64,000 nt of DNA from contig CAVQNG010000004.1 of assembly GCA_963713825.1 (NCBI GenBank), positions 1 through 64,000 on the forward strand. The letters run 5' to 3'. Both the position numbers and the translations under genes were made by a program. Source of the stretch: an uncultured Acidobacteriota bacterium (GTDB lineage Bacteria; Acidobacteriota; Thermoanaerobaculia; Multivoradales; JAHEKO01). The first letter of the stretch is position 1. Each line of letters opens with the position of its first letter. Below are positions 14,370 to 37,781 of this stretch, piece after piece. The notes beneath the pieces were generated by a model. That model did not search any database, had not been told where the DNA came from, and saw nothing but the letters and a program-made list of their open reading frames with translations.

Positions 14370-14373
14370 TGAA

Positions 14374-15214: not shown

Positions 15215-15252
15215 TCGTGCCTCCCCCGGCTTGGGAGCTAGAGCTTCTAGGA

Positions 15253-17375: not shown

Positions 17376-17508
17376 AGTAGTCCCCCTCCTCCTGAGAACC
17401 GGTGAAGCCGCGCAACCAGACGCGGTTGCGAGCATGACAAAGCAAAGTGTATTTATCAAGCATTATTTTCTTGCAAAGTGATACGCAAATTCGCTAGATT
17501 GAAAACAA

Positions 17509-20988: not shown

Positions 20989-21125
20989 TTGACAAAACGT
21001 GCAAAACATTCATATAGTTCATTTGGCTCGACGAAGAGCAAGACAAACAATTCACTAAGCAACTTGACGATCCCACCAATGAGAACTCGAAAATCAGTCG
21101 ATACCATGAACATTCAAAACATTCA
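20989..21125 (+). promoter_or_regulatory. Carotenoid-operon promoter with 9-bp tandem repeats (candidate operator)
   Basis: TTGACA(20989)-N18-TATAGT(21013); the spacer is AAACGTGCA AAACATTCA; a second pair GAACATTCA AAACATTCA lies at 21108-21125. Confidence 0.7.
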
Positions 21126-21183: not shown

Positions 21184-22791
21184 ATGCAGCGTAGGAGCGC
21201 TGGTCGAAGTGGAAGCAGAGGCAAGAAGGTCGTTATCGTGGGAGCGGGGCCCGGAGGCCTGGCCAACGCGATGCTACTGGCCCAGGCCGGGTTCGATGTG
21301 GAGGTTCTCGAGAAGCAAGCGCGCGTTGGGGGTAGAACCTCGACCATCTCGGAGAACGGATTCAACTTCGATCTGGGCCCCACGTTCTTTCTCTATCCGC
21401 AGGTCCTGGAGAGCATCTTCAGCAGCTGCGGGATGGACCTGAATGATGAAGTCGACCTGATCCGTCTCGACCCCCACTATCGGCTGCTCTTCGAGGAGGG
21501 TGGTGAGCTCGAGATCACACCCGACATCGAGCTCTTGAAGGAACGGGTCGCAGCTCTGGCTCCCGAAGATGCACCGAACCTAGACAAGTTCATGAGTGAC
21601 AACAGAGAGAAGCTAGCCGCGTTCAAGCCGATCCTCGAGTCACCAATGGAGAGCATCAAGGATCTGCTGGGGCTCTCGCTCTTCGAGATGCTGCCGCTCC
21701 TGCGGCCATGGAAGAGCGTCGACCAGGATCTGAGCACCTACTTCCAGGATCCCCGGGTCAGGCTGGCCTTCTCGTTCCAAAGCAAGTACCTGGGCATGTC
21801 GCCGTTTCGGTGCCCTAGCCTGTTTACCATTCTCTCGTTTCTGGAGTACGAGCATGGTGTGTTCCATCCCCGTGGTGGGTGTGGTGCTGTGAGCCAGGCC
21901 ATGGCCCGTGCAGCCGAGAAACTCGGCGCCCGGATCCATCTCAACGAGCCGGTCGAGGAGATCCTCTTCGAGGGTCGCAAGGCCGTCGGAGTTCGATCCA
22001 GCAGTGGCGTCCGAAAGTGCGACGCCCTCGTCGTCAACGCTGATTTCGCGCACGCCATGTCTCACCTGGTCCCGAACCACCTGCGCAAGCGGTGGACGGA
22101 CGAGAAGCTCGAGAGGAAGAAGTTCTCCTGCTCCACGTTCATGATGTACCTGGGAGTCGAGGGGCGCATGGACGACCTCGCCCACCACACGATCTATCTC
22201 GCCGACGACTACCGCCAGAACCTGCGAGAAATCGAAGACGATCACGTTCTGTCGGAGCAGCCCTCCTTTTATGTTCAGAACCCGACTGTGACCGACCCGA
22301 GCATGGCGCCACGAGACATGAGCTCACTGTACGTCCTGGTCCCGGTCACTCACCAGCACTCGAATGTCGATTGGGCCCGGGACACAGAGAGCTTTAGAAA
22401 AGTGGTCGTGAAACAGCTCGAGAAGGTCGGCATCGACGATCTCGATCGACGCATTCGGTACGAGAAGATCCTGACTCCGTCCCACTGGGAGACCGAGCAG
22501 GGTATCTATCGGGGAGCGACCTTCAACCTCGCTCATACGCTGGGTCAGATGCTCAACAGGAGGCCGCACAACCGGTTCGAGGACCTCGAGTCCGTCTATC
22601 TGGTCGGCGGAGGTACGCACCCAGGCAGCGGTCTGCCTGTCATCTTCGAGTCGGCGAAGATCACTTCGCAGCTGATCGAGGAAGACGCTCAGGGGGTGGA
22701 AAAGACTACCTTCCTGCCCTTCCGAGGTGTAACCAAGGTGATCCCCGCTTGGAAGCAGTCCACCACGAGCCGACTGAGCAAGACTGCCTGA
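21184..22791 (+). CDS. crtN: Phytoene desaturase (CrtI) family protein, CrtN-like
   Basis: VIVGAGPGGL FAD motif, FDLGPT, SFQSKYLGMSP, LYVLVPV, YLVGGGTHPGSGLP; GGAGG ribosome-binding site. Confidence 0.85.
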   Translation: MQRRSAGRSGSRGKKVVIVGAGPGGLANAMLLAQAGFDVEVLEKQARVGGRTSTISENGFNFDLGPTFFLYPQVLESIFSSCGMDLNDEVDLIRLDPHYRLLFEEGGELEITPDIELLKERVAALAPEDAPNLDKFMSDNREKLAAFKPILESPMESIKDLLGLSLFEMLPLLRPWKSVDQDLSTYFQDPRVRLAFSFQSKYLGMSPFRCPSLFTILSFLEYEHGVFHPRGGCGAVSQAMARAAEKLGARIHLNEPVEEILFEGRKAVGVRSSSGVRKCDALVVNADFAHAMSHLVPNHLRKRWTDEKLERKKFSCSTFMMYLGVEGRMDDLAHHTIYLADDYRQNLREIEDDHVLSEQPSFYVQNPTVTDPSMAPRDMSSLYVLVPVTHQHSNVDWARDTESFRKVVVKQLEKVGIDDLDRRIRYEKILTPSHWETEQGIYRGATFNLAHTLGQMLNRRPHNRFEDLESVYLVGGGTHPGSGLPVIFESAKITSQLIEEDAQGVEKTTFLPFRGVTKVIPAWKQSTTSRLSKTA

Positions 22792-22807
22792 GGCGACAGG
22801 ATTCGGT

Positions 22808-24301
22808 ATGGCTATTCAATTCCAGAAGTCCGACGGCACGCCAGCCGCTCGCACGCCATCGCTGCATTCAGTAGCGCGGGCACGACGGGCGCAGCGACAC
22901 TGGTCGCAAGTCGGCGTCGGGCAGCGTTTGGAAGTCATCCAGAACTTCCGTTGGGCTCTTGCCGAGCAGGGATCCGAGTTGGCCCGCACCGTCGAGCTGG
23001 ACCGGTCTGGAGGCCTTGCGGAAACGCTGTCGGCTGAGATCTTGCCCCTGGCAGACGCGTGTCGTTTTCTCGAAGACGAAGCCACCACCCTGCTGCGCCC
23101 TCGTAGGTTGACCAGCAGAGGTCGACCGCTTTGGCTCTTCGGCACCTCGAGTGAGGTGCAACGCCAGCCCCTGGGAGTCGTCTTGATCATCGCGGCTTCG
23201 AACTATCCCCTGCTGCTGCCGGGAGTCCAAACGATCCAAGCCCTGGTCGCTGGCAACGCCGTGCTCCTGAAGCCAGGCCGAGACTGTTCGCAGGCCGCCC
23301 AAGCTCTGGTGAATATGCTCGTCGAATGCGGACTGCCCAAAGACCTGGTGGCGATCCTCGACGAGTCACCTGCGGCGGCACAGTGGGCGATGGACGCCGG
23401 GGTCGACAAGGTCCTTCTCACCGGCTCTTTGACCACGGGCCGTGAGGTTCTCGCTCGGCTCGTTCCGAACGTGACACCAGCCATCGTGGAGCTCTCGGGA
23501 TGCGATGCGGTGTTCGTTCTACCCAACGCCGACCTGAATCTCGTGGCGCGAGCTCTGGCCTTCGGCCTGAGGTTGAACGGCGGCGCGACGTGCATTGCTC
23601 CACGTCGGGTGTTTGTTCCCAAGAGCCGTCTCTACGCCCTCCAGCATCAACTGGAGAATGCACTGATCGACTCTCCGACCTTCGAGGTCGACTCGGCCAT
23701 AGCGTCTCTCGTCACCGACCTCATCGCCGAAGCCCAGGCGGAAGGTGCGACGGTGGCCTGCGGCGATGTCCCGAGCGAGAATCGTATGCGCCCGCTGGTC
23801 GTCAGCAACGCCACACCCGACATGCGACTCCTGCGCACAGATGTCTTCGCCCCTGTCCTTTCGTTGGTGGGTGTCAACGACGCGGAGGAGGCGTTGGCCC
23901 TCGACGCTCAGTGCCCGTATGCCCTCGGAGCGAGCGTCTTTGGCCCGACAGCCGAGGCCCAGCGCTTCGCAAAGCGGGTGCAAGCCGGAGTGGTCGTCGT
24001 CAACGACATGATCGCACCGACGGCTGATCCCCGCTTACCGTTTGGTGGCAGGGGCTCGAGTGGCTTCGGTTCGACACGAGGAGCGGAAGGGCTACTCGAG
24101 CTCACGGCGCCGCGCGTCGTCATTCAGCGCCACGCGAAAACGCATCCGCATTTCGAAACACTGCAGCCGGGCGATGAACGGCTGTTCGAGTCCTACCTGA
24201 AGGCAACACATTCCAGGCGTTGGAGTGACCGCTTCAACGGCTGGCGCAATTTGATTCGTGACCTGCGGCGCAAGAGCCGCGTCAAGAAGGAGGAGAAATG
24301 A
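22808..24301 (+). CDS. Aldehyde dehydrogenase (CrtNc/AldH-like carotenoid-aldehyde oxidase by context)
   Basis: SNYP, LLTGS, ELSGCD, NGGATC (catalytic Cys), PFGGRGSSGFG; lies between two desaturase-family genes. Confidence 0.8.
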   Translation: MAIQFQKSDGTPAARTPSLHSVARARRAQRHWSQVGVGQRLEVIQNFRWALAEQGSELARTVELDRSGGLAETLSAEILPLADACRFLEDEATTLLRPRRLTSRGRPLWLFGTSSEVQRQPLGVVLIIAASNYPLLLPGVQTIQALVAGNAVLLKPGRDCSQAAQALVNMLVECGLPKDLVAILDESPAAAQWAMDAGVDKVLLTGSLTTGREVLARLVPNVTPAIVELSGCDAVFVLPNADLNLVARALAFGLRLNGGATCIAPRRVFVPKSRLYALQHQLENALIDSPTFEVDSAIASLVTDLIAEAQAEGATVACGDVPSENRMRPLVVSNATPDMRLLRTDVFAPVLSLVGVNDAEEALALDAQCPYALGASVFGPTAEAQRFAKRVQAGVVVVNDMIAPTADPRLPFGGRGSSGFGSTRGAEGLLELTAPRVVIQRHAKTHPHFETLQPGDERLFESYLKATHSRRWSDRFNGWRNLIRDLRRKSRVKKEEK

Positions 24302-25833
24302 GCCTCTTGAAACATCGAGAACCCCGAGTCGGAATCGTTGGCGGAGGTCTGGGTGGATTGGCTGCGGCCTGCACTCTGGCGGCCCGAGGACACAACGTAA
24401 CCCTGCTCGAGAAGAACGCCTGGCTGGGCGGCAAGGCCGCGGTTCTGCAGGAACAGGGCTACCGCTTCGATATGGGGCCGACGATCCTCACCGTGCCCAA
24501 GGTCCTGGAGAGGATCTTCGCCGAAGCGGGCAAGAACCTCCATGACGAATTGGATCTGGTTCGGCTGGACCCCCAGTGGAGGTGCTTCTACGAGGATGGC
24601 TCGGTCCTCGATCTACTGCAAGACACGGCGCAGATGGCTCAGAGGATCGGCGAGTTCTCTTCAACTTCGGGTGATGAATCCAGCTACACCGATTTCCTCA
24701 AGCTGTCCGAGGAACTGCATGACATCTCTGATCGCTTCTTCTTCTGGAAATCGGTCGAAGACATTCAGGACACCATGGACCTGAAGGCGACGTTCAATCT
24801 GAGCGCGCTGCGCGACCTGGTAAGGCTGCGTATGGGTCGCTCGGTCGCCGGCACGATTCGAGGGCATATCGACGACCACCGGGTGGCCCAGATGCTGGAT
24901 CACTTCACACAATACGTCGGGTCCTCGCCGTACGAGTCGCCCGCGGTTCTGTGCAGCATCGCCCACATGCAGACCGAGGGCGGAGTCTGGTATCCGATCG
25001 GCGGCACGAGGGCGGTACCCGAGGCTCTGGCTCGCCTGGCCGAAAGCCTGGGCGTCGAAGTGCGGACCGAGACCGGCGTCCAGCGCATTCTCACCGACAA
25101 CGGCAAGGTGACCGGAATTCTCACCGACAGCGGTGAGACCCTCCCCTTCTCCACCGTGGTGTCCAATATGGACTCGGTGCGAACCTATCGCGAGCTCGTG
25201 GGAGGCGAGGTCGGAGAGCACTTCGACCAACGCCGCCGTTTCAAGCCGGCCTGCTCGGGAGTCGTTCTGTATCTCGGTCTGGATCGTGCTTACGAGCACC
25301 TGATGCACCACAACTTCGTCTTCTCGCGCGATCCGGAAGAGGAGTTCGACTGGATCTACAACCAGGGAGAGCCCGCACCCGATCCGACCTGCTATGTCGC
25401 AGCGCCTTCCCGCACTGAGGCGGCAGTCGCGCCGCCTGGAGGCGAGGCTCTGTACGTCCTGGTGCACACACCCTTTCTGGGTGCCCACCACGACTGGCGT
25501 CAGATGTTGCCAGACTACCGGCAGGTGATTCTGGACAAGCTCAAGAGCTGTGGTGGAATGGAGGACATCGAAGAGAGAATCGTGGTCGAACAGGCCCTGA
25601 CGCCACAGGACATTCACGATCGCTATAACGTCCTCAAAGGTGCGATCTACGGTCTCGCCAGTCACGGTCGCTTTCTGGGCGCCTTCAAACCAGGCAATCG
25701 GAGTCGGGAGATCGAGGGTCTGTATCTTGCTGGTGGAGCAGCTCACCCCGGCCCGGGCATGCCGATGGTGATGATGTCGGGCTGGATCGCGGCCGACTCG
25801 CTCGATAAGGACCAGCAACCCATCGCGGCCTGA
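24298..25833 (+). CDS. crtNb: Second CrtI-family FAD oxidoreductase, CrtNb/CrtP-like (diapolycopene oxygenase)
   Basis: GIVGGGLGGL, FDMGPTILT, HFTQYVGSSP, GAIYGLASHG, HPGPGMPMVMMSG. Confidence 0.75.
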   Translation: MSLLKHREPRVGIVGGGLGGLAAACTLAARGHNVTLLEKNAWLGGKAAVLQEQGYRFDMGPTILTVPKVLERIFAEAGKNLHDELDLVRLDPQWRCFYEDGSVLDLLQDTAQMAQRIGEFSSTSGDESSYTDFLKLSEELHDISDRFFFWKSVEDIQDTMDLKATFNLSALRDLVRLRMGRSVAGTIRGHIDDHRVAQMLDHFTQYVGSSPYESPAVLCSIAHMQTEGGVWYPIGGTRAVPEALARLAESLGVEVRTETGVQRILTDNGKVTGILTDSGETLPFSTVVSNMDSVRTYRELVGGEVGEHFDQRRRFKPACSGVVLYLGLDRAYEHLMHHNFVFSRDPEEEFDWIYNQGEPAPDPTCYVAAPSRTEAAVAPPGGEALYVLVHTPFLGAHHDWRQMLPDYRQVILDKLKSCGGMEDIEERIVVEQALTPQDIHDRYNVLKGAIYGLASHGRFLGAFKPGNRSREIEGLYLAGGAAHPGPGMPMVMMSGWIAADSLDKDQQPIAA

Positions 25834-25894
25834 CCGCCATCGGACCGCTGAAGAGAATCGGAATCCAACGATCAGATCCAAGGGACCCAGAACG

Positions 25895-26713
25895 ATGTCG
25901 GAGACAACCACCAACTCACCGGCGAGCGACCAGAACATGCCCGCAGTTTCTCCTCGGCTAGTGACGTGGTTCGCGCGCTACCTGCGGCGCTACTTCGCCC
26001 GCAGCTTCGACGCGATTCGGGTCAGCGGAGAGGATGTCCTCTCCGAGGTCGACAGCGGTCCACTGGTGATCTATTCCAACCATCCGTCCTGGTGGGATCC
26101 GATTCTCTTCATGCTTCTCAGCCAGGATCTCATCCCCGGTAGGCACGCCTACGGACCGATGGATTCCGAAGCTCTCGAGAAGTATCGGTTCCTGGCCAGG
26201 CTGGGTGTCTTCGGAGTCGAGCAGGGGACTCGTGCCGGGGCGGTCCAGTTTCTCAACACCGGAGAGGCCATCCTGCGTCGCCCCGATGCCGCTCTCTGGA
26301 TCACCGCTGAAGGCAGATTCACGGATCCCCGGCAGCGTCCCGTGAGACTTCGACCTGGGTTGAGTCACCTGATTCGACGAGTTGGCGCGGTCACGGCAAT
26401 TCCTCTCGCGGTCGAGTACACCTTCTGGAATGAGCGACTGCCCGAGATCCTGGTTCGCTTCGGAGACCCGGTCGAGTTCACAGCAGACGACCGACAAACG
26501 CCTATCACCGAGTTGACGATGCGTCTGGAGCAGGGGCTCGAATCGACTCTGGACCACCTCGAGACCTTGGCCCTGGAAAGAGATTCCTCAGCGTTCGGGA
26601 CCCTGCTGCTTGGCCGCAGCGGGGTCACCGGAATCTACGACTGGTGGCGCCGTCTGATCGCCAACCTGCAAGGCAAACCATTCGACGCCTCCCATGGTGG
26701 GGACCACTCATGA
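25895..26713 (+). CDS. PlsC-type acyltransferase, probable carotenoid acyltransferase
   Basis: NHPSWWD (HxxxxD) and ITAEG motifs; inside the carotenoid operon. Confidence 0.8.
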   Translation: MSETTTNSPASDQNMPAVSPRLVTWFARYLRRYFARSFDAIRVSGEDVLSEVDSGPLVIYSNHPSWWDPILFMLLSQDLIPGRHAYGPMDSEALEKYRFLARLGVFGVEQGTRAGAVQFLNTGEAILRRPDAALWITAEGRFTDPRQRPVRLRPGLSHLIRRVGAVTAIPLAVEYTFWNERLPEILVRFGDPVEFTADDRQTPITELTMRLEQGLESTLDHLETLALERDSSAFGTLLLGRSGVTGIYDWWRRLIANLQGKPFDASHGGDHS

Positions 26714-27837
26714 CCTTGGAACTTCTGGCGATTGCGGCGTGCGTCCTGGCGAGCGTTCCGGCCCTCAATGTCGCTGTGAACCTGCTTTTCTATCGGCCAG
26801 TCCCGAAAAGCGGTCAGCCCGGAGGCGAGATGCCTTCGGTGTCCGTGCTGATTCCAGCCCGCGACGAGGAGTCGAACATCCACAACGCCGCCTCCAGGGT
26901 GCTCTCGAACCGCTCGCGCGACCTCGAGCTGATCGTCGTCGACGACGACTCCCGCGATAGGACAGCCGAGCTCGTCGAGCAGTTCTCCGCTCAGGACTCG
27001 AGAGTCCGACTGCTCCGTGCGCCCCGACTTCCGGACGAGTGGGGTGGCAAGCCGCACTCCTGCTTCACCGGAGCGGCCAGTGCTGTCGGCGACTACTTCG
27101 TCTTCGTCGATGCAGACGTGGCCCTGGAGCCTGACGCCATCGAGCGCCTCGTCGCATTCATGGACAAGACCCGAGCCGACCTGGCGAGCGGCATCCCACG
27201 CCAGGTGACGAAGACCCTCACCGAGAAGTTGGTCATACCCTTGATTCACTTTGTCCTGCTGGGCTTCCTCCCGATGATGGGCATGCGATGGACCCGCAGG
27301 CCGGCCTTCGCAGCCGGCTGTGGACAGCTGTTCATCGCCAGGCGCACCGCCTACGAGGAGACCGGAGGTCACCAGGCCGTCAAGGCCTCGCGACACGATG
27401 GTCTCGAGCTGCCCAGGGCCTTTCGCAGGCGCGGCTTGAAGACGGAGCTGTTCGACGCAACAGACTTGGCGACCTGCCGCATGTACCACAATGGGACGGA
27501 AGTCTGGAACGGTTTCGCGAAGAACGCCACGGAGGGCATGGCCACTCCGACCGCCATCGTGCCCTGGACCCTCCTGCTCGTCGGAGGCCAGATCTTGCCT
27601 CCCCTCCTCTTGCTGACGGCCTGGCTGACCCATGCTGGAAGTTCGACGGTAGCGTTGGCCGCCGCCGCTACGGCCATGGCCTTCGTCACTCGACTGGTCC
27701 TGGCTTGGAGATTCGAACAATCTCTCCTCGGTGCCCTGCTCCATCCGGTGGGGATCGCAATCCTCGTTGCCGTGCAATGGTTCGCCTTGGTTCGTGAATC
27801 GCTGGGGCGCCCTCTCGCCTGGAAAGGCCGCACCTGA
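26710..27837 (+). CDS. GT2 glycosyltransferase (CrtQ-like)
   Basis: VSVLIPARDEE, VVDDDS, WGGKPHSC, FVDAD, CGQ, CRMY; overlaps the acyltransferase stop codon (ATGA). Confidence 0.85.
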   Translation: MTLELLAIAACVLASVPALNVAVNLLFYRPVPKSGQPGGEMPSVSVLIPARDEESNIHNAASRVLSNRSRDLELIVVDDDSRDRTAELVEQFSAQDSRVRLLRAPRLPDEWGGKPHSCFTGAASAVGDYFVFVDADVALEPDAIERLVAFMDKTRADLASGIPRQVTKTLTEKLVIPLIHFVLLGFLPMMGMRWTRRPAFAAGCGQLFIARRTAYEETGGHQAVKASRHDGLELPRAFRRRGLKTELFDATDLATCRMYHNGTEVWNGFAKNATEGMATPTAIVPWTLLLVGGQILPPLLLLTAWLTHAGSSTVALAAAATAMAFVTRLVLAWRFEQSLLGALLHPVGIAILVAVQWFALVRESLGRPLAWKGRT

Positions 27838-28784
27838 TGTCGATCGCGGTCGATGACGCGACAGCACCGTCACTCTCCGTGCGCCATGTGCGCAAGCGCT
27901 TCGGAACCGTACAGGCTCTCGACGGAGTCTCGTTCGACCTGAATCCCCAAGAGTGGATCGGACTGCTCGGTCCCAATGGGGCTGGCAAGACCACTCTGAT
28001 GAGCTCGATTGCCGGCCTGCTGCGACCCGACGAGGGTGAGTTCGAGCTCTTCGGCCAGCGGGTCAACCCCTGGGCCTCGAGCCGCGCCCGCGCGCTGCTC
28101 GGTATCGTGCCGCAGGAGATCGCCCTCTACTCACTCCTCTCTTCCCGGGAGAACCTGGAAGTCTTCGGTCGGCTGCATGGGTTGGCAGGCCCCGATCTCT
28201 ACCAGCGAGTCCGGTGGGCTCTGGGGTGGACTGGACTGGCGAACCGAGCCGACGAGCAGATCGGAGGATTCTCTGGCGGCATGAAGCGACGCCTCAACAT
28301 CGCCTGCGCCGTGCTGCACGAACCGCGAGTGGTGCTGCTGGACGAGCCGACAGTTGGCGTCGATCCCCAGGGTCGAAGCAAAATCTGGCACATGCTGGAC
28401 GAGCTCCGCAACAATGGCGCCGCCCTGATTCACAGCTCTCACCAGCTGCAGGAGATCGAAACCACCTGCGACAGGGTCATGATTCTGGATCACGGATCCC
28501 TCGTGGCATCGGGGCGGGTGGGCGATCTGGCCGACACCCTCGCTGCGGGACGCAAGACCGTCACCATCCTCTTCAATCGGGCTCCCGAATCACTGGATCT
28601 GGGAGAAGGATTCGTGATTCAAGGACGAATCGGCGAAGGCTCGGTGCGTGACGCCGGGCGCGAGCTGCCCGATCTACTGGCTCGCATCTCCTCCGAGGGC
28701 CTGGACATCGTCAGCCTCGAGGTCTCGACACCCGACCTTGAAGCAGTCTTCAGCGGTCTGACGGGAACGGAGCTGAGAGATTGA
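27837..28784 (+). CDS. ABC-2 type exporter ATP-binding protein
   Basis: [23 protein letters not shown]. Confidence 0.92.
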
Positions 28785-29947
28785 TCTGGACCATCTTCAG
28801 GCTCGGTTGGCTGCATCTGAAACGCGATCGAGTGGCGCTGCTGCTGACGTTCGCTTTGCCGATCGTGTTCTTTTCCATCTTTGCGGCTGTCTTCAGTGAT
28901 CTCGACACCGACCACCTGGAGAAGCTGGAGGCGGTCCTGGTCCTCGAGGATGAAGGGACGATTGCAGAGAGATTCGCCACCCTGCTCGAGCAGGAACCTG
29001 CACTGCTGATCCATCGGCTCGAGACTGGCGAAGGCCGAGCACTCCGAGAGTTCGCTGCCGAGCAAGTCCGGGAGCGTCAGGTGGACGTGGGAATTGTTGT
29101 TCCCTCTGGATTCGCCGATCGCCTCTCGGACTCGAGCAGCGAGGCTCGACCAGTCCAGGTGCTGGCCGACTCCTCCAATCCTCTCGTTGGCGAGCTGGCT
29201 GCGGGAATCCTGAACGCTGTGACGGTTCGCCTCACCTTCGAAGAGCTGGGCATGATCGACGATGGCAGCGCTGGCGAAGCACTCGAGTCTCCCTTCTCCT
29301 TCGAGATCGCCGATGTCGTTGGCGACGATGACGACAAATCCGCTGTCGCTTTCTTCTCGGCGGGCATCGGAGTCATGTTCCTTCTGTTCGCAGTCAGCGG
29401 GCGTAGCGGCATCCTGATTGACGAAAAAGAGAGTGGTGTCTTGAGGCGGGTCCTGGCGTCCAGACTGGGGCTGGGACAGCTCCTCATCGGGCACTGGCTG
29501 TTTCTCGCCGCCCTCGGCTTCGTACAGGTAACAGTGATGTTCGTCTGGGCATGGGCGGCCTTTGGCCTGGACCTTTGGACCGCCGCGCACCTCACTGGCT
29601 TCGTCATCATGACGGCAGTCTCGGCGGCGGCCGCTGCAGCCTTCGGACTCTTCCTTGCATCCGTCTGCAGGACCCGCATTCAGCTCGCAGGCGTCTCGGC
29701 CGTTGTCATTCTCGTCATGTCGGCCTTGGGAGGCAGTATGTTTCCACGCTACCTGATGCCGGAGGGGTTGAAGAAGCTGGGCCTGCTGACCTTCAACGCC
29801 TGGGCCCTGGACGGTTATCAGAAGGTCTTCTGGTATGAGACGGGCCTCGCCGATCTGATGCCTCAGGTGATGGTTCTGGTAGCGGTCACCCTCGCCTTTC
29901 TGCTCGCGACCCGAGTGCTCGCATCGAGACTGGTCCGCGATTCGTAA
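28781..29947 (+). CDS. ABC-2 type exporter permease
   Basis: N-terminal TM, extracytoplasmic domain, EKESG motif, C-terminal TMs with GGSMFP..MP; coupled to the ATPase gene. Confidence 0.85.
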   Translation: MIWTIFRLGWLHLKRDRVALLLTFALPIVFFSIFAAVFSDLDTDHLEKLEAVLVLEDEGTIAERFATLLEQEPALLIHRLETGEGRALREFAAEQVRERQVDVGIVVPSGFADRLSDSSSEARPVQVLADSSNPLVGELAAGILNAVTVRLTFEELGMIDDGSAGEALESPFSFEIADVVGDDDDKSAVAFFSAGIGVMFLLFAVSGRSGILIDEKESGVLRRVLASRLGLGQLLIGHWLFLAALGFVQVTVMFVWAWAAFGLDLWTAAHLTGFVIMTAVSAAAAAAFGLFLASVCRTRIQLAGVSAVVILVMSALGGSMFPRYLMPEGLKKLGLLTFNAWALDGYQKVFWYETGLADLMPQVMVLVAVTLAFLLATRVLASRLVRDS

Positions 29948-29962
29948 TCAGGAGTGACCCAC

Positions 29963-31357
29963 ATGACCGATCAGATCTTCGAGAAGACCAGTCGAATCGA
30001 AGCCAGTGCACAGGAGCTCTATGCGTGGCATTCGCGCTCAGGCGCCTTCACAAGGCTCTCACCTCCTTGGCAGCAGGTTCGGCTTCTCGCCGGCAGCACA
30101 GGTCTGCGCGAAGGCTCCCGCGTCGTTCTGGAGCTCAAATCCGGTCCCTTCCGCAAGATCTGGAAGGCCGAGCACCGCAATGTCCGGCCCGGGCTCGGCT
30201 TTCAGGATATTCAACTCGAAGGGCCCTTCGCTCGATGGGAGCACACCCATGAGTTCTCTCCGGTCAACGACACCAGCAGCGAGCTGAGAGATCGTATCTC
30301 CTTCCAGCTGCCGGCCGGGACCATCGGCAACCTCGCGGGCAAGGACTTCGTCCGGCGTCAGCTGGAACGCGTCTTCGCCTACCGCCACAGCACCACGGCG
30401 GACGACCTCCGACTTCTCGCCAAGTTTCAACACCTACCTCGCTTGAAGATCGCAGTGACAGGAAGCACCGGATTCATCGGCAGCGCTTTCACCCACCTGC
30501 TGACCACACAGGGTCACACCGTCTTGCCAATGGCCCGTGCGACGTCGGTGCAGAACCCAAATCTGGCGACCTGGAACACAGAGGATGGCGTCTTGAACCC
30601 GCAGAGCCTGGAAGGCGTCCATGCCGTAGTCCACTTGGCGGGAGAAAGCGTCAGCGACGGTCGTTGGAGTCGCACCAAGAAGGAACGAATTCTCGCGAGC
30701 CGGGGGCTGGGCACGACTCGGCTGGTCGATTCCCTTGTCGCCTTGAACGAACCTCCCAAGGTCCTGGTCTCGGCCTCGGCCATCGGCTTCTATGGCAATC
30801 GCGAAGACCAGATTCTCAATGAGCAAAGCGCCAGTGGTACAGGGTTTATCGCCGACGTAGCCGAGGCCTGGGAGGCAGCCTCCCAGAGTGCCTCCCAAGC
30901 CGGCATTCGGGTCGTCAATCCTCGATTCGGAGTCGTGCTTTCGCCGACAGGCGGTGCCCTGGCCAAGATGCTCCCACTGTTTCAGGTAGGCGCTGGAGGT
31001 GTCCTCGGTAGCGGCAAGCAATGGGTGAGTTGGATCTCTCTCGACGACGCCATCGCATCACTATTGCATGCGATCATGCGCCCCGACCTGCGAGGCCCCG
31101 TCAATATCACGTCACCGAGTCCCGTGACCAACCGGGAACTGACGGGGGTTCTCGCCAGGGTCGTGCGACGTCCAGCCCTTGCCAGAGTGCCCTCCATCGC
31201 CGCCAAGGTGGCCTTCGGAGAAATGGCTGAAGCGATGCTCCTGGCCAGCACCCGAGTGATGCCAGAGAGCCTCGAGGACGACGGCTTCGAGTTTCGACAT
31301 CCGGATCTGGAGACCGCATTGCGGCATGTTCTGGGCAGAACAACACTGGCTACATGA
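29963..31357 (+). CDS. SRPBCC domain fused to TIGR01777 (YfcH-like) NAD-dependent oxidoreductase
   Basis: N-terminal AFTRLSPPW..GPFARWEHTHEF; C-terminal VTGSTGFIG, VHLAGE, SASAIGFYG, WISLDD. Confidence 0.85.
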   Translation: MTDQIFEKTSRIEASAQELYAWHSRSGAFTRLSPPWQQVRLLAGSTGLREGSRVVLELKSGPFRKIWKAEHRNVRPGLGFQDIQLEGPFARWEHTHEFSPVNDTSSELRDRISFQLPAGTIGNLAGKDFVRRQLERVFAYRHSTTADDLRLLAKFQHLPRLKIAVTGSTGFIGSAFTHLLTTQGHTVLPMARATSVQNPNLATWNTEDGVLNPQSLEGVHAVVHLAGESVSDGRWSRTKKERILASRGLGTTRLVDSLVALNEPPKVLVSASAIGFYGNREDQILNEQSASGTGFIADVAEAWEAASQSASQAGIRVVNPRFGVVLSPTGGALAKMLPLFQVGAGGVLGSGKQWVSWISLDDAIASLLHAIMRPDLRGPVNITSPSPVTNRELTGVLARVVRRPALARVPSIAAKVAFGEMAEAMLLASTRVMPESLEDDGFEFRHPDLETALRHVLGRTTLAT

Positions 31358-31866
31358 TCGACCCGAACCACAACCCATCGAGATCCGAGGTGGTCGCAAA
31401 GCCTCGGGGCCTGGAGATAGAGCACAGCTTCGAGATTCCCGATCAAGCCACCGAGGCGGTGTTCGAGCTGTTCTGTGACCCCCGAAGACTGAATGCCCTA
31501 ACGCCTCCGTGGTTCAGTCTGATCGTCCGCGGCTCCTATTCGCCTCCGGTTCGACTCGATTCCAGAATCGAATATCGACTGCGGTGGCGGGGTCTGCCTT
31601 TGGCCTGGCGCAGCGTCATCACCGAGCTGCAGCCACCGAACTGGCTTGTCTATGAGCAAGCTCAGGGGCCGTTTCGGCGCTTTCGACACGAGCACTCTTT
31701 TGATCCGTCCCGGCAGGGTGTCGTCATCACCGACCGCATCCTTTACAGCGTCTTTGGCGGCTCCTGGATCGACCGCACACTGGTTGGCCCTGATCTGCGT
31801 CGGATCCTGCGCTACAGGGAGCGCGCCGCCACGGAGATCCTCCGCCAGCAGGCGCAGCCCAAATAG
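31354..31866 (+). CDS. SRPBCC-family protein
   Basis: FCDPRRLNALTPPW, WRSVITE, EQAQGPFRRFRHEHSF, ILRYR. Confidence 0.8.
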   Translation: MIDPNHNPSRSEVVAKPRGLEIEHSFEIPDQATEAVFELFCDPRRLNALTPPWFSLIVRGSYSPPVRLDSRIEYRLRWRGLPLAWRSVITELQPPNWLVYEQAQGPFRRFRHEHSFDPSRQGVVITDRILYSVFGGSWIDRTLVGPDLRRILRYRERAATEILRQQAQPK

Positions 31867-32008: not shown

Positions 32009-32926
32009 TCAGGCGACGTCGGCCTGCACTCGACCCTGCGCCTCGGCTTCGGTCGCTCCAAGACGCAACCCCTTCACCAGCGCCTCGAGCTCGCCCATGG
32101 TCGTTCCGACATGCAGATGTGGGACGTCGGGTAGGCCGAGCTGATCCGCTTTCTGCCCTCCGATGACCAGTGGGAGTCCCTTGTCCTCGAGGGCTTCGAC
32201 GAACTCGACCAGCTGCGCCTGCAACTTTTCCCGGTCCTCGATGGCAGTCACGCTCAGCCATAGCAAGCTGGCATCCATCGACTCCGCTGCCAATTGCAGC
32301 GATTCGAGAGGTGTCTCCGGGCCCAGGTTGACCGCATTCAGACCACGGGACTCGAGCACTGCAGCAGCTGCCAGAGATGGCAGTAGATAAGGGTCACCCG
32401 AGGGAGCACCGCCAACCGCAACCGGAGAACCTGGCTGGCTCGGGATCAAAAGACGCAGCCGCGTCAAGGCCTGAATGGCGATGTCAGTGGCCCTGTGCTC
32501 TTGGAAGACTCCCGCGGTCTCATTGCCCTCGAACCACAGCTTCCCGAGACGCTCCATGGCCGTCTGCACGGGACCATCGATGATCTGGGCAATGCTCCGG
32601 CCACTGAGATAGAGACTCTGGATCAGTCCCCTGGCGTGCTCTGCCCTGCCACTCTCGAGGAAGTCGAAGAGGGTATCTCCGACATCCCCTCCTATTGGTA
32701 GGTCTCCACCGAGCGCCGAGACATCCGGCAATCCGAAGATGTCCGGGTGTAAAAGTGGCGTCTTCGTTTCTCGCAGGAAGCGAACGGCTTCGCTCATGGC
32801 GATCCTGCGATGCCCACCAGCGGTCTTGCTGGCGGGAATCGTCCCCGAATCGACCCATCGCTTGATCGAGGATTCGCTGACTCCGATCGCCTGGGCGAAC
32901 TCTTTTGGGCTCAAGACATCCTTCAT
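32009..32926 (-). CDS. CarH/LitR-like regulator: MerR/HTH_17 DNA-binding domain plus B12-binding-like domain lacking the canonical His
   Basis: LSPKEFAQAIGVSESSIKRWVDSG..TAGGHRR; cap helix GKLW..QEHRAT; Rossmann domain with GDPYLLP in place of GExHxxG, then NLGPETP, WLSVT, VIGG. Confidence 0.8.
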   Translation of the reverse strand: MKDVLSPKEFAQAIGVSESSIKRWVDSGTIPASKTAGGHRRIAMSEAVRFLRETKTPLLHPDIFGLPDVSALGGDLPIGGDVGDTLFDFLESGRAEHARGLIQSLYLSGRSIAQIIDGPVQTAMERLGKLWFEGNETAGVFQEHRATDIAIQALTRLRLLIPSQPGSPVAVGGAPSGDPYLLPSLAAAAVLESRGLNAVNLGPETPLESLQLAAESMDASLLWLSVTAIEDREKLQAQLVEFVEALEDKGLPLVIGGQKADQLGLPDVPHLHVGTTMGELEALVKGLRLGATEAEAQGRVQADVA

Positions 32927-33006
32927 CGTGGAATTTCCTATTGCTTGACGATTTGAGTGTTTAACAATCAGCGATCCGACTGCTTAACCCTGCTCTGAAC
33001 AAGCCA

Positions 33007-33106
33007 ACTATGCCAGTAAATACAGTTAAAGTCAACCTTCACAGCAACCCCCGGAGATCCTTGACAAGTTGAGTTCCTTTTCTTAATATGAATGTTATGA
33101 CTGTTT
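33007..33106. promoter_or_regulatory. Divergent promoters (regulator and photolyase) with 9-bp repeats
   Basis: Minus strand TTGACT(33035-33030)-N17-CATAGT; plus strand TTGACA(33061)-N17-TAATAT; TGAATGTTA TGACTGTTT at 33089-33106. Confidence 0.65.
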
Positions 33107-33137
33107 GCGTAGCCTCACTCATGCTCTCCAAACGCTC

Positions 33138-33283
33138 CGCGATGGTGCAGGCCCTCGGCGAATCGCCTACCCAGTGCCTTACCCTGCTTCTGCTGTTCTT
33201 GCTGCAGCCCTCCCTCCAGGCGACCCGACAGGAAAGGCACTCCCGGACTCGCCTCGCCTCTGCCGAGGGTCTGCACGATCGCG
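33138..33283 (+). ncRNA. Candidate structured RNA or leader element upstream of the photolyase gene
   Basis: 22-bp stem 33138-33159/33262-33283 (one mismatch, one G-U); inner stem AGTGCCTT/AAGGCACT; apical C-rich loop. Confidence 0.4.
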
Positions 33284-33323
33284 TAGACTTCTGAAAGGCT
33301 CCCAACCCAAAGGAGGAGCTACG

Positions 33324-34748
33324 ATGAAATCCCTTGTCTGGTTTCGATCCGACCTCCGACTTGAAGACAATCCGGCACTCTTTCACGCCTGTCGCGACTC
33401 CGCGGCTGGCCTGATTGCTGTATTCCTGATCTCCCCGAACCAATGGCACAGCCATGATTGGGGAGCTCGGAAGATCGCCTACCTCCTGCAGGGCCTCGAG
33501 AGCCTCGGCAAGGACCTGGCAGCGATCGGAATTCCCCTGGTTATCGAAGAGGCGCCCGGATTCTCCGATGCGCCGAAGGCCCTCGAAAGACTCCTGGAGC
33601 GACACCGGTGCGAGGCGCTCTACTTCAATCGCGAGTACGAGTTCAACGAGGCGAGTCGTGACGAACTGCTCTCGCGTCGCCTGCAGAGTCAGGGAATCGA
33701 GGTGCGAGCGTTCGACGACCAGATGATCGTGGAGCCCGGTACGATCCGAACGCAGAAGGGTGAGCCCTACTCTGTCTTCACACCCTTCTGGAGGAACTGG
33801 TCCAAGCATCTGGAGAATCAGCCCCCTGCACCTCTTCCAAGGCCTGCGCCTCTAGGCGCGGACTTTCTCCTGGACTTTTGCCTGCCCGAGTTCGCGGCCA
33901 CGCAAAACACAGGCTCACACTCAGATTCTGAGTGGACAGTTGGCGAGACGGCCGCCAAAGAGCAATTGATGACCTTTCTCGCGTCGGCCGCTTCGGGCTA
34001 CCACCGATTGCGAGACGACCCTTCGGCCAAGGGTACGAGTCGTCTTTCTGCCGCCCTGGCAGTCGGAGCTCTATCTCCACGGACCTGCCTCGATCGGGCA
34101 ATTAGTGCTAACGACGGATTCCTCACTGGCGACTCAGAGGGAATCCAGGCCTGGATTCGTCAACTCGCTTGGCGCGACTTCTACCGCCAAGTGCTGATCT
34201 CCTTTCCAAGGGTCAGCCGGGGCAGAAGTTTCCTCGAGTGGACGGAGCGGGTCGAGTGGAGAGACAGTCCGCATGATTTCAACGCTTGGCAAAGCGGTCA
34301 GACAGGTGTGCCACTCGTCGATGCCGGAATGAGACAACTGCGAGAAACGGGCTGGCTTCACAATCGCGTTCGGATGGTAACCGCTATGTACCTTGCCAAG
34401 GACCTCCTTCTCGACTGGCGCCAGGGCGAGGCGCACTTCATGCGCGAGCTCGTGGATGGCGATTTTGCGAACAACAACGGGGGCTGGCAGTGGTCCGCAT
34501 CGACAGGCGTCGATGCGGCACCCTACTTTCGAATCATGAACCCCTGGACCCAAGCCAAGCGTTTCGATCCCTACGGCGAGTACATCAAGACCTGGGTCCC
34601 CGAGATTCGCCAAGTCGCTTCTCGGAGCCTCCATGACCCAAAGAAGCTCACAGAGTTGATCCACGCAGGCCTCGACTACCCCGAGCCCTTGGTCGATCAT
34701 CGGGCGGCCAGAATCAGAGCTGTCACTGCTTTCGAGCGCGCCAAGTAA
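33324..34748 (+). CDS. phrB: Class I deoxyribodipyrimidine (CPD) photolyase
   Basis: WFRSDLRLEDNPAL, YSVFTPF, TSRLS, WRDFY, GQTGVPLVDAGMRQL, HNRVRM, NNGGWQW, FRIMNP; AGGAGG ribosome-binding site. Confidence 0.95.
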   Translation: MKSLVWFRSDLRLEDNPALFHACRDSAAGLIAVFLISPNQWHSHDWGARKIAYLLQGLESLGKDLAAIGIPLVIEEAPGFSDAPKALERLLERHRCEALYFNREYEFNEASRDELLSRRLQSQGIEVRAFDDQMIVEPGTIRTQKGEPYSVFTPFWRNWSKHLENQPPAPLPRPAPLGADFLLDFCLPEFAATQNTGSHSDSEWTVGETAAKEQLMTFLASAASGYHRLRDDPSAKGTSRLSAALAVGALSPRTCLDRAISANDGFLTGDSEGIQAWIRQLAWRDFYRQVLISFPRVSRGRSFLEWTERVEWRDSPHDFNAWQSGQTGVPLVDAGMRQLRETGWLHNRVRMVTAMYLAKDLLLDWRQGEAHFMRELVDGDFANNNGGWQWSASTGVDAAPYFRIMNPWTQAKRFDPYGEYIKTWVPEIRQVASRSLHDPKKLTELIHAGLDYPEPLVDHRAARIRAVTAFERAK

Positions 34749-34867: not shown

Positions 34868-34925
34868 TTGACAAACCTGAAGCCATAGATTACTGTTTTG
34901 AACGTTGTGAATGTTTTGAATGCTT
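34868..34925 (+). promoter_or_regulatory. Promoter with four 9-bp tandem repeats
   Basis: TTGACA(34868)-N17-TACTGT; TTACTGTTT TGAACGTTG TGAATGTTT TGAATGCTT at 34890-34925. Confidence 0.7.
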
Positions 34926-34971
34926 CATCGAGTCAACCATGACTCTTCAATCACGAAGAAAGGAGCCGCAA

Positions 34972-35649
34972 ATGACTGGAATCCGTACGCTACTCACCCT
35001 CGTCCTGGTGCTGCTGCTGGCACCCCTCGCAGCCTCGGCCCAGAACTTCACCCTTTTTGTCACCCATGGCATTCCCGGCGACGATGGCATCTTCCCCGTC
35101 GACATCGAGGTCGGCGACCTCGGATGCGCTATTGAGAACCTCGAATTCGGCACCATCCTCGGTCCTCTGGATCTGCCCGCTGACACCTACGACATCACGA
35201 TCCACGCAGGCGGCACCAACTGCGGCGACCCCGTCCTCGGGCCGATTACCGATACCTTCGAAGAGGGTCAGAACGTATCCCTCGTCGCCCATTTGACCGA
35301 GTCAGGGGACCCGACGGTCAGCAAGTTCTTCAACGACTTTTCCAAGGCGTACGGTCGGAACAGGGTTACCGTCCATCACGTCGCGGCGGCCGGAGACGTT
35401 GACGTGATCTTCGGCCGAAACAAGAAGCGGAAAGACTTCGTCATCAACCAGTTGTCCAACGGTGAGCAGGTCGGCGCTGAGCTCACGCCTGGCAACAGAT
35501 TCCTGACGATTACTGGTTCGATCGGTGGCCCAAAGGTGCTTGGACCCGCTGCCATCAAGCTGCGACCCTGGCTCGTCACCCTGGCTTACGCGGTCGGCGT
35601 ACCCGGGGAGAGTTTTACGGTCATTTCCAAGTCGTTCTACAACAGGTAG
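34972..35649 (+). CDS. Secreted DUF4397-like protein
   Basis: Signal peptide ending ASA; two repeats with V.H..P/A..VD motifs (VTHGIPG..PVDI; VHHVAAAGDVDV). Confidence 0.7.
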   Translation: MTGIRTLLTLVLVLLLAPLAASAQNFTLFVTHGIPGDDGIFPVDIEVGDLGCAIENLEFGTILGPLDLPADTYDITIHAGGTNCGDPVLGPITDTFEEGQNVSLVAHLTESGDPTVSKFFNDFSKAYGRNRVTVHHVAAAGDVDVIFGRNKKRKDFVINQLSNGEQVGAELTPGNRFLTITGSIGGPKVLGPAAIKLRPWLVTLAYAVGVPGESFTVISKSFYNR

Positions 35650-35857: not shown

Positions 35858-37009
35858 ATGCCGAAACCGACGATCCTGGTGATCGGCCTCGGGCACCTGG
35901 GCGGTGTGGTGCTCGAGCTCCTGGCGCGCCAGGAATGGGTTGGAAGAATTGTCGGCGCCAGCCGCCACCCGGAACGAGGGGTGGCGCGATGCAATCTGGC
36001 CCGGCTCGGCGCCATGGCACAGGGCTATTCGACGGACATCGAGTACCAAGAGATCGATCTCCGAGACGTCGATCGGGTGGCCGAATCGATTGACGAGCTC
36101 GAACCCGACCTCATCCTCAGCACGGCCAGCCTGCAGACCTGGTGGCTGACCGAGTTGCTGCCTGCCGTGGCAGCCGCCCGCTTGTCGCGAGCTCGTTTCG
36201 GCGCCTGGCTGCCCATCCATCTGACCCTGACCCTGGATTTGATGCGAGCCGTCAAGGCCAGCGGCTTCCCAGGTCCCGTTCTGACCGCTCCGTTCCCGGA
36301 TGTCGTGAACTGCATTCTCGACCGACTGGGTGTGGCACCGACCTGCGGCGTTGGCAACATCGATGAAGTCGTGCCCAAGGTGCGCTGGCTTGCAGCTGAG
36401 AGTCTGCAGGTACCGAGCCGCGAAATCGAAGTGACAATGGTCGCCCATCACGCGCTGCAGAAGGCGGTCTTTCGCTCTCCGCAAGACGACGTTCCATCCG
36501 CCGTGCCCCCTTTCCACCTGCGGATCGATCACCTGGGCGAGGATGTCACCGATGAGGTAGGTGGTCGGGACCTCCTGCTCGCTCCCTCTCCACTACCCGG
36601 AGGACCAGCTTGGGGCTTTCTGACCTCCGGCTCCGCCGTCCGGCTCGTCGAGGCATTTCTATCGCCTCGGGAGTCTTTGCTGCACGCCCCTTCCCCTGGA
36701 GGACTACCAGGTGGCTACCCGGTCCTTGTGGGCAATGGTCGAGTCCGCTACCGCCCCCTCCCCGACCTCTCCCGCGGTGAGGCCATCCGGATCAACGAGC
36801 GGTCTCAGCCTTTCGATGGCATTCATGCCATCCAAGACGACGGCACCACCGTCTTCGAGCCGGTGACCGTTCAGGTGATGCGGCAGGAGTTGGGCTACGA
36901 CTGCGAGCGCCTGGCGCCTCATGAAGCGACCGAGCGTGCACAAGAGCTCCTGGCTCGCTTCCGCGAGTATGCTCAGGGCTTGGGCATCGACCTTGAACGA
37001 CCAGCTTGA
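35858..37009 (+). CDS. NAD(P)-binding Rossmann protein (saccharopine-dehydrogenase-like N-terminus), function unknown
   Basis: ILVIGLGHLGG; FPDVVN; GVGN; PGGLPGGYPV. Confidence 0.55.
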   Translation: MPKPTILVIGLGHLGGVVLELLARQEWVGRIVGASRHPERGVARCNLARLGAMAQGYSTDIEYQEIDLRDVDRVAESIDELEPDLILSTASLQTWWLTELLPAVAAARLSRARFGAWLPIHLTLTLDLMRAVKASGFPGPVLTAPFPDVVNCILDRLGVAPTCGVGNIDEVVPKVRWLAAESLQVPSREIEVTMVAHHALQKAVFRSPQDDVPSAVPPFHLRIDHLGEDVTDEVGGRDLLLAPSPLPGGPAWGFLTSGSAVRLVEAFLSPRESLLHAPSPGGLPGGYPVLVGNGRVRYRPLPDLSRGEAIRINERSQPFDGIHAIQDDGTTVFEPVTVQVMRQELGYDCERLAPHEATERAQELLARFREYAQGLGIDLERPA

Positions 37010-37018
37010 GGTGCAAGC

Positions 37019-37771: not shown

Positions 37772-37781
37772 GGACCCCACA

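Follow-up and report, generated by a model that had tools for sequence, protein, structure and literature searches.

A CarH/CtMerR-like regulator with tyrosine at the cobalt-ligand position: a putative repressor of photoprotection genes in an uncultured Acidobacteriota bacterium

The regulator gene and its fold

We analysed a stretch of 64,000 nucleotides (positions 1 to 64,000 of contig CAVQNG010000004.1, assembly GCA_963713825.1; below called the window) from an uncultured Acidobacteriota bacterium of the class Thermoanaerobaculia. As an initial annotation had it, a gene for a CarH-like regulator lies here between carotenoid genes and a photolyase gene: an operon with two CrtI-family genes adjoins it on one side, a gene for a class I cyclobutane pyrimidine dimer (CPD) photolyase on the other. 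In the encoded protein tyrosine stands at the position of the histidine that holds the cobalt in the described B12 photoreceptors CarH/LitR, AerR and CtMerR, a residue that published searches require. The gene and its parts are the following.

32009..32926, minus strand: regulator gene, 305 amino acids with ATG start, a predicted Tyr-variant CtMerR/CarH-like repressor (open reading frame (ORF) and Pfam)
32768..32917, minus strand: excisionase/BldC-like winged helix-turn-helix, residues 4-53 (HTH_17, E 3.1e-9)
32456..32677, minus strand: four-helix-bundle B12 cap, residues 84-157 (B12-binding_2, E 8.2e-7)
32534-32536 and 32495-32500, minus strand: cap residues W131 and E143-H144, respectively
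32102..32434, minus strand: Rossmann-like module, residues ~165-275 (weak PF02310 match, motif, strands and helices of the AlphaFold2 (AF2) model)
32387..32389, minus strand: codon TAT of Tyr180, at the cobalt-ligand His position (alignment to 8jbs, 3whp and 5c8d)

The head domain scores 37.4 bits with HTH_17 (cut-off 27) and 31.6 bits with TIGR01764 excise (cut-off 28.8). HTH_BldC matches it with 30.7 bits (E 2.1e-7), under the family cut-off of 77, and the BldC-DNA structures 6ama and 6amk match it with E 0.002-0.003. Judged from its sequence, the head is BldC/excisionase-like, as in CtMerR, and not a canonical CarH MerR head. On the whole protein the NCBIfam model NF052513 (TransRegCarH) reaches 48.2 bits with a cut-off of 400, and the best sequence match in the PDB is CtMerR (8jbs; E 6.3e-23, residues 5-258), followed by Thermus CarH/LitR (E 1.1e-8). 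The AF2 model, built on an alignment of 40 family sequences, has a predicted local distance difference test score (pLDDT) of 95.1 and a predicted template-modelling score (pTM) of 0.91; a Foldseek search with it returned CarH and CtMerR on top, CtMerR with a target-normalised TM score of 0.78, which is the structural comparison with CarH that the initial annotation had proposed. The helix-turn-helix, the W..QEH cap and the Rossmann domain described there are borne out, the Rossmann domain by a weak Pfam match and the AF2 model, and the cap reads W131-F132...Q142-E143-H144, with the phenylalanine that had been noted after the cap tryptophan. A protein search of the organism's own genome for a second CarH-like or His-type paralogue returned the gene itself as the sole match.

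Predicted operators and regulon

A scan of species-representative genomes gave 533 regulator loci, and our locus counts rest on the best 80 of these. Nearly all of the 80 are metagenome-assembled genomes (MAGs) of Thermoanaerobaculia and other Acidobacteriota, Phycisphaerae and Planctomycetales, with a few other groups. Source records name the homologues only as 'excisionase family DNA binding protein', 'helix-turn-helix domain-containing protein' or 'MtbC1', and the atlas clusters of the family are labelled 'hypothetical' or 'MerR family'.

Eighty upstream regions were searched for a shared operator, 79 from these loci (locus L002 has no upstream sequence) and one from the window. The hexamer TGAACG occurs in 71 of them, compared with 5 of 80 coding controls, and the motif resolves to tandem 9-bp direct repeats of AAWCGTTCA. 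In-phase runs of at least two units are present in 70 of the 80 regions (two units in 53, three in 16, four in one) and in 0 of 80 shuffled regions. At least two separate repeat clusters occur in 44 regions, the best site has the orientation of the regulator gene in 74, and sites peak ~20-45 nt and ~160-200 nt ahead of the start codon. BldC binds head-to-tail on direct repeats whose unit, AATTxxxx(C), is 9 bp long (PMC5859096). Because the regulator combines a BldC-like head with 9-bp repeats, the same binding mode is likely here, and by this analogy the heads would likely bind tandem AAWCGTTCA repeats head-to-tail.

A position weight matrix (PWM) derived from these operators found 32 sites of at least 14 bits and 14 sites of at least 21 bits in the 5.42-Mb assembly, as against 0-1 and 0 in shuffled 1-Mb samples. 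Six of the 14 strong sites fall within the window, at promoters. The predicted operators, promoters and targets around the regulator gene are these.

20989..21021, plus strand: promoter-like site of the carotenoid operon, TTGACA, 18-nt spacer, TATAGT, 11/12 matches (promoter scan)
20995-21021, plus strand: three tandem operator repeats covering the spacer and -10 box of the carotenoid promoter (24.5 bits at 20995, 23.6 bits at 21004)
21108..21125, plus strand: second operator, in the leader of the carotenoid operon (PWM 23.4 bits)
21184..31866, plus strand: predicted target, carotenoid operon (start inferred; TTG 20989, the listed ORF start, coincides with the -35 box)
32945..32962, minus strand: weak operator of two 9-bp units, 19 nt upstream of the regulator start (PWM 15.6 bits)
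33007..33089: back-to-back promoter-like sites, regulator on the minus strand (33035 to 33007) and photolyase on the plus strand (33061 to 33089)
33089..33106, minus strand: operator touching the -10 box/start region of the photolyase promoter (PWM 22.5 bits)
33324..34748, plus strand: predicted target, class I CPD photolyase, divergent from the regulator (PRK10674, 545.9 bits, cut-off 506)
34899..34925, minus strand: three tandem operator repeats just upstream of the DUF4397 gene (PWM 25.7 and 21.6 bits)
34939..35649, plus strand: predicted target, DUF4397 protein (Pfam), with the operator directly upstream

The carotenoid operon encodes a CrtI-family desaturase, an aldehyde dehydrogenase, a second CrtI-family enzyme, an acyltransferase and a GT2 protein, and also an ABC ATPase with permease, an SRPBCC-TIGR01777 oxidoreductase and an SRPBCC protein (NCBIfam: TIGR02734 with 540 and 416 bits, TIGR01777 with 315 bits). 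We take this gene set to represent a pathway for C30 glycosylated, acylated carotenoids. The photolyase gene is the sole member of the photolyase/cryptochrome family in the genome. Its promoter-like site consists of TTGACA at 33061, a 17-nt spacer and TAATAT ending at 33089; two back-to-back promoters were found where 0.3 are expected, these being consensus matches only. At the weak operator in front of the regulator gene lies a conserved block that is common to the orthologous locus L001, and autoregulation through this operator is probable from the sequence. A 15-nt direct repeat, CTTGACNRNTTGAGT, in the spacer between the regulator and photolyase genes was considered and set aside (two in the window compared with 2.17 expected, at two mismatches); its copy at 32944 overlaps the weak operator.

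Outside the window, strong sites lie in front of a fasciclin gene and of an NmrA-DUF2867 operon whose last gene belongs to the SOUL family, and also ahead of a YceI/MFS pair and of a pair made up of a radical-SAM gene and a gene without assigned family; a further site is internal to a DUF1302 gene and may be spurious. In other genomes the regulator has fasciclin and NmrA-DUF2867 genes as neighbours; here these genes are unlinked and still carry the operator, which supports the assignment of operator to regulator. The overlap of operators with core promoters indicates repression. Taken from sequence, the prediction that the regulator represses carotenoid, photolyase and other photoprotection genes is well supported.

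Neighbouring ORFs of at least 90 amino acids were clustered, named by Pfam and then counted by tblastn over the 80 loci. The most frequent are an NmrA-DUF2867 oxidoreductase and a fasciclin-domain protein (31 loci each), followed by GTP cyclohydrolase I (folE) and an SRPBCC-epimerase-DUF1731 protein (19 each), photolyase, amine oxidase and DUF1295 (15 each), CFA synthase (14) and a carotenoid gene set (6). One cluster, 'unk18', was discarded as the opposite-strand shadow of the fasciclin gene and has no Pfam match. At least one gene of this photoprotection set lies within 10 kb in 69 of the 80 loci, mostly adjacent, upstream and divergent, and several of the 11 loci that have none are short contigs; linkage to crt and phr genes, which the initial annotation had marked as worth checking, is thus borne out. 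Some genomes hold two Tyr-type copies (L008 and L013 on the same contig, L016 and L017 in the same MAG), and in one such case, on a contig of 13.9 kb, both regulators flank the carotenoid gene set.

This set of neighbours presumably also matches the singlet-oxygen regulon of Rhodobacter. In Pseudomonas, photolyase, folE and a furan-fatty-acid synthase are induced by light (PMC9758184). The match of the family's neighbours to this published light-induced regulon argues against a regulator that has nothing to do with light, i.e. a general stress or metabolic repressor, such as a sensor of B12 availability, that merely adjoins photoprotection genes. Some predicted operators do precede genes with no obvious role in light, namely the YceI/MFS and radical-SAM pairs, as would be expected of such a repressor. 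Yet neighbours of the photolyase, folE, CFA synthase, carotenoid and fasciclin kinds recur beside the regulator in those 69 loci across several phyla, and in this genome members of the same families bear the operator even where they lie apart from the regulator. We consider this explanation very improbable.

Two further features adjoin the predicted targets. The photolyase leader of ~230 nt (33096-33323, plus strand) can fold into an imperfect hairpin with arms at 33124-33159 and 33262-33297 that are 78% complementary, its minimum free energy being -86 kcal/mol compared with a shuffle mean of -72 (z = -3.0); the photolyase frame is listed from TTG 33105, through this hairpin, and the family-like N-terminus begins at ATG 33324. 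Downstream of the DUF4397 gene (35858-37785, plus strand) lie two ORFs of 383 and 259 amino acids with no Pfam or NCBIfam match, which may belong to the same light-regulated unit as that gene.

Tyrosine 180 and the possible mode of sensing

The ligand loop of the regulator reads G177-D-P-Y180-L-L-P183. In HMMER alignments to solved structures, Tyr180 aligns with the His that ligates cobalt in CtMerR (GDLHEI) and in Thermus CarH (GERHEI), as had initially been read from GDPYLLP, and its codon TAT is one transition away from the His codon CAT. The initial annotation had considered that close homologues might all have His here, in which case a sequencing error or a private mutation would be at hand. 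The opposite was found: all 120 closest homologues (49-97% identity), taken from a collection of 5.8 billion proteins, have Tyr in this column, and in the 121 rows that include the query the loop is DPY in 99, DRY in 17 and different in 5. When 1.84 billion cluster representatives (50% identity) were searched exhaustively with HMMER, 3563 matched with E <=0.001 and 616 with E <=1e-30. Among the best 150 representatives the ligand column holds Y in 121, S in 10, H in 8, G, A and F in 3 each, and T and C in 1 each; the 77 genome loci with an alignment across the site have Y in 74 and H, C and S once each. Pro179 is absent from all His rows and present in most Tyr rows. In a quick maximum-likelihood tree of 147 rows (4 rows outside 260-340 amino acids were excluded; 8 of 144 inner branches are starred), the 8 His rows are dispersed and require 8 changes, equal to shuffled labels, on a poorly resolved topology that does not give the direction of change; one sister pair of a Tyr and a His row has 96% support. 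By these alignments Tyr180 is a conserved trait of the family and not an error or a private change. The mix of residues together with the scattered His rows indicates that the ligand site tolerates His as well as non-ligands within a loop that is otherwise fixed. That B12 cannot be bound here in the His-on way, as was argued at the outset, follows by sequence from Tyr180.

The remaining contacts to B12 are largely in place. The classic B12 motif is D/ExHx2G/P-x41-SxT/V-x22-27-GG (PMC9304148), and the regulator has D178-P-Y180-L-L-P183, x41, S225-V-T227, x28 and G256-G257, i.e. the SxT/V and GG elements are present at the right spacing. A published signature of light sensing comprises GxxW, EH, GxxH and GxxxP (PMC11796333), and three of its four elements are found as G128xxW131, E143-H144 and G202xxxP206, GxxH being represented by G177-D-P-Y180. 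According to the same paper, these elements of CtMerR contact both corrin and adenosyl group, and some of the contacts come from the adjoining subunit. Of the corresponding residues, G128, E143, H144, D178, G202, P206 and G257 occur in all 77 genome loci, and W131 and G256 in 76. The same nine residues are present in 94-99% of 151 rows, and the motifs are kept down to ~40% identity and across phyla.

These observations suggest how the regulator might sense. Because all other B12-contact motifs are conserved, cobalamin held without His seems to us a better candidate than heme or than no cofactor at all. The most economical reading is a corrinoid that has no His ligand, given the strict conservation of tail pocket and adenosyl cap, the variable residue at the ligand position and the recurrence of His forms. 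The C-terminal module would retain a cobalamin, probably adenosylcobalamin: the Rossmann pocket would take up the nucleotide tail, and the W/EH cap would cover the adenosyl group. Beneath the cobalt, in the place of His, Tyr180 would either coordinate weakly through its oxygen or form a lid that does not coordinate (base-off, His-off). Bound cofactor would keep the protein on its operators in darkness, as head-to-tail dimers or tetramers of the CarH kind; light would then cleave the Co-C bond, loosen the oligomer and so turn on the genes. Overall we give an even chance to the reading that the protein is a repressor responding to light or photo-oxidative stress, acting on 9-bp repeats and most likely sensing cobalamin bound without His; taken for itself, sensing by His-off cobalamin has a probability of about one half. 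The wider proposal that Tyr-type proteins are true B12 photoreceptors, with adenosylcobalamin bound base-off and His-off over a tyrosine (or Ser or Phe), and form the usual light switch of photoprotection in Acidobacteriota and Planctomycetota is more tentative, and we hold it to be less likely than not.

The supply of the cofactor and the predicted oligomer are compatible with this reading. The cell can make adenosylcobalamin, judging from a genome with a PduO-type adenosyltransferase, one cobalamin riboswitch and seven proteins whose B12 domains score above cut-off. A PduO-type adenosyltransferase is also present in 36 of 40 other regulator genomes, and two of the remaining four have one of the CobA type. 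The homodimer model of the regulator scored 0.45 compared with 0.00 for the best control, with contacts that agree to at least 90% between runs and a partner pLDDT of at least 81; among proteins solved as one-chain pairs 20 of 30 attained this mark, and among those solved as single chains 1 of 23 did. The predicted interface sets cap helix 137-159 against the loop/helix 199-216, plus residues 179 and 181, in the head-to-tail arrangement of CarH and CtMerR. Since like complexes have been solved, the model may draw on memory, so that it shows likeness only.

Several points weigh against cobalamin sensing or against the wider argument. The Rossmann match to PF02310 (residues 178-259) has E 0.037 and 14.3 bits with a cut-off of 32.1. 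The cap spacing is W-x11-EH in the regulator and its nearest relatives and W-x9-EH in the rest of the family, and EH is also kept in the B12-independent CarA (PMC9304148). The presence of an adenosyltransferase does not discriminate, since the enzyme is also found in many control genomes; the neighbour counts come without a formal background control, and the operator PWM was trained on loci that also define the family. Thermus CarH with the exchange H177A binds no B12 and stays monomeric (PMC8221060 and PMC4557120); loss of the His is therefore enough to kill B12 binding in the canonical protein. Lastly, the Tyr180 loop lies in the predicted dimer interface and therefore could be conserved for oligomerisation alone.

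A rival reading is a B12-independent repressor, in which the CarH-like module serves as an oligomerisation scaffold, Tyr180 fills the cobalt site, and the light or singlet-oxygen input comes from an unlinked factor. Such a factor could be an antirepressor, a separate photoreceptor or a sigma/anti-sigma pair, comparable to CarA/CarS in Myxococcus or class II LitR and its short LOV protein in Pseudomonas. Besides the H177A result, the sub-threshold PF02310 match and the loop at the interface, precedents exist in CarA (PMC9304148) and in class II LitR with its LOV partner (PMC9758184), and the organism's own genome holds one short BLUF ORF, its sole BLUF gene (C3:476089-476358, plus strand; open frame of 162 amino acids). 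However, cofactor motifs are lost in both precedents, CarA being without the Trp and class II LitR without a recognisable Rossmann module, while W, EH, GxxxP, SxT and GG are almost invariant across phyla in the Tyr family. PF02310 also stays under its cut-off in His-bearing members of the family (15-31 bits), as it does in Tyr-bearing ones, so that divergence of the Rossmann module is a trait of the whole family and not decay after loss of the His. No conserved antirepressor, photoreceptor or other partner gene was found beside the family among the clustered neighbours of the 80 loci (ORFs of at least 90 amino acids). BLUF was rejected as an obligate partner: it occurs in only 4 of 40 regulator genomes and in neither of the two closest relatives, and no operator lies near the BLUF ORF of this genome. 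His forms recur inside the family as well. We regard the B12-independent repressor as possible but rather unlikely.

Tyrosine is a common heme ligand, and a B12-like domain that binds heme exists in the SCHIC domain of AppA. The regulator could accordingly be a sensor of another tetrapyrrole, i.e. heme, protoporphyrin IX or bilin, with Tyr180 in an axial or stacking role, that reports photosensitiser load or redox state and not light taken up by B12. The predicted regulon includes the SOUL heme-binding-family gene with its upstream operator, and photocobilins pair cobalamin domains with bilin-binding domains (PMC11796333). On the other hand, SxT/GG serve the nucleotide-tail pocket and W/EH the adenosyl cap, and no evident use for their conservation is seen with heme or porphyrin; no heme-related domain is among the Pfam matches of the regulator; and the occurrence of S, G, A and F at the ligand position argues against an essential bond between Tyr and a metal. 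We consider another tetrapyrrole improbable.

A precedent for His-off cobalamin, the reading we prefer, comes from Rossmann-type corrinoid proteins that lack the His motif. Iron-sulphur corrinoid methyltransferases hold their corrinoid in a base-off, His-off state. They are the exception to the consensus of the His motif (PMC4915002).

The window holds two further elements outside the regulator's predicted regulon. A corrinoid methyl-transfer cluster at 12546-17459 (minus strand) is unrelated to the regulator and shows that the cell uses corrinoids. Its genes are the following.

12546-14369, minus strand: RACo-type reductive activase
14432-15343, minus strand: pterin-binding methyltransferase
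15253-15987, minus strand: MtbC-like corrinoid protein with GDLHDLG (PF02310, 104 bits)
15893-17459, minus strand: MttB-family methyltransferase, split over two overlapping frames (PF06253)

The corrinoid protein had been put forward as an internal contrast to the regulator; it is real and keeps DLHDLG, but it extends to 15987 and not to 15900 as first given. In the MttB gene, ORF 16077-17459 covers PF06253 positions 21-330 and ORF 15893-16705 positions 316-492, and this split over two frames points to a frameshift near 16.4 kb (pseudogene, assembly error or recoding). The sole Rfam match in the window is a c-di-GMP-I-GGC riboswitch aptamer (RF03167, 9708-9790, minus strand; 69.1 bits, gathering threshold 59).

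By sequence comparison the family appears to be a large undescribed branch of the CtMerR/CarH-type B12 photoreceptor-regulators. Full-text literature searches, with subscription-only reviews and supplements outside their scope, returned no account of a CarH/CtMerR family with the Tyr variant, nor any of the 9-bp operator. If B12 is bound, the rules by which B12 light sensors are recognised need widening and the coordination chemistry would be new; if it is not bound, the family is a clear example from nature of how the scaffold of a photoreceptor can be rewired to a different input. Either way, the regulator predicts how carotenoid and DNA-repair genes are switched in many uncultured Acidobacteriota and Planctomycetota of soil and water, and the defined operator and regulon make the sensing question directly testable. 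A true His-off site would imply an absorption spectrum, redox behaviour and photoproduct unlike those of His-on CarH. Free base-off alkylcobalamins absorb near 460 nm rather than at about 525 nm. The regulator would then be a B12 sensor that is blue-shifted by nature, and optogenetics would gain a new scaffold.

Comparison with known systems

The head domain of the regulator resembles BldC of Streptomyces (6AMA/6AMK; PMC5859096), and the 9-bp direct repeats predicted as its operators are like BldC sites. BldC differs in having 68 residues and no sensor domain, and the regulator scores below the BldC family cut-off. Class II LitR of Pseudomonas (PplR/PmlR) has a similar regulon and a B12-binding_2-like bundle without demonstrated use of B12 (PMC9758184). 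By the same source its head is of the MerR type, its C-terminus shows no B12 Rossmann motif that could be recognised, and its gene adjoins that of a short LOV partner, whereas the regulator has a Rossmann fold with SxT and GG kept and no photoreceptor gene adjacent. CarA of Myxococcus xanthus, the B12-independent paralogue of CarH, is, as predicted for the regulator, a carotenoid repressor of the CarH type that departs from canonical B12 use, but the loss of motifs is reversed: CarA keeps the His motif and EH without the Trp and its flanking residues, and the Tyr family keeps the Trp and EH without the His.

CarH/class I LitR of Thermus thermophilus, Myxococcus xanthus and Bacillus megaterium represses carotenoid and photoprotection genes, as is predicted for the regulator, and has a W...EH cap and a C-terminal module of the B12 type. 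The cap motif of CarH is W-x9-EH, and the regulator has W131 and E143-H144 at the spacing x11; direct-repeat operators that overlap promoters and a head-to-tail dimer are common to both, in the regulator as predictions. Sequence similarity to the regulator is low (E 1.1e-8), and a canonical MerR head contrasts with the HTH_17/BldC-like one. CarH operators are made of 11-bp repeats and differ in period from the 9-bp repeats of the regulator. The bis-His light state of CarH is impossible in the regulator because it has no His ligand and carries Phe132 after the Trp.

CtMerR of Chloracidobacterium thermophilum (8JBS dark, 8JBT light) is by experiment an adenosylcobalamin photoreceptor with His204 as lower ligand (Yu et al., FEBS J 2024; PMC11796333). 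The signature filter of that paper demands GxxH, and Tyr forms are therefore not retrieved by it. CtMerR differs from the regulator in the His204 ligand and in its shown adenosylcobalamin binding and light response, where the regulator has Tyr180, known from sequence. The two are alike in the excisionase-type helix-turn-helix, the four-helix cap and the Rossmann module, in GxxW, EH and GxxxP, and in a residue after the Trp that is not His in either protein.

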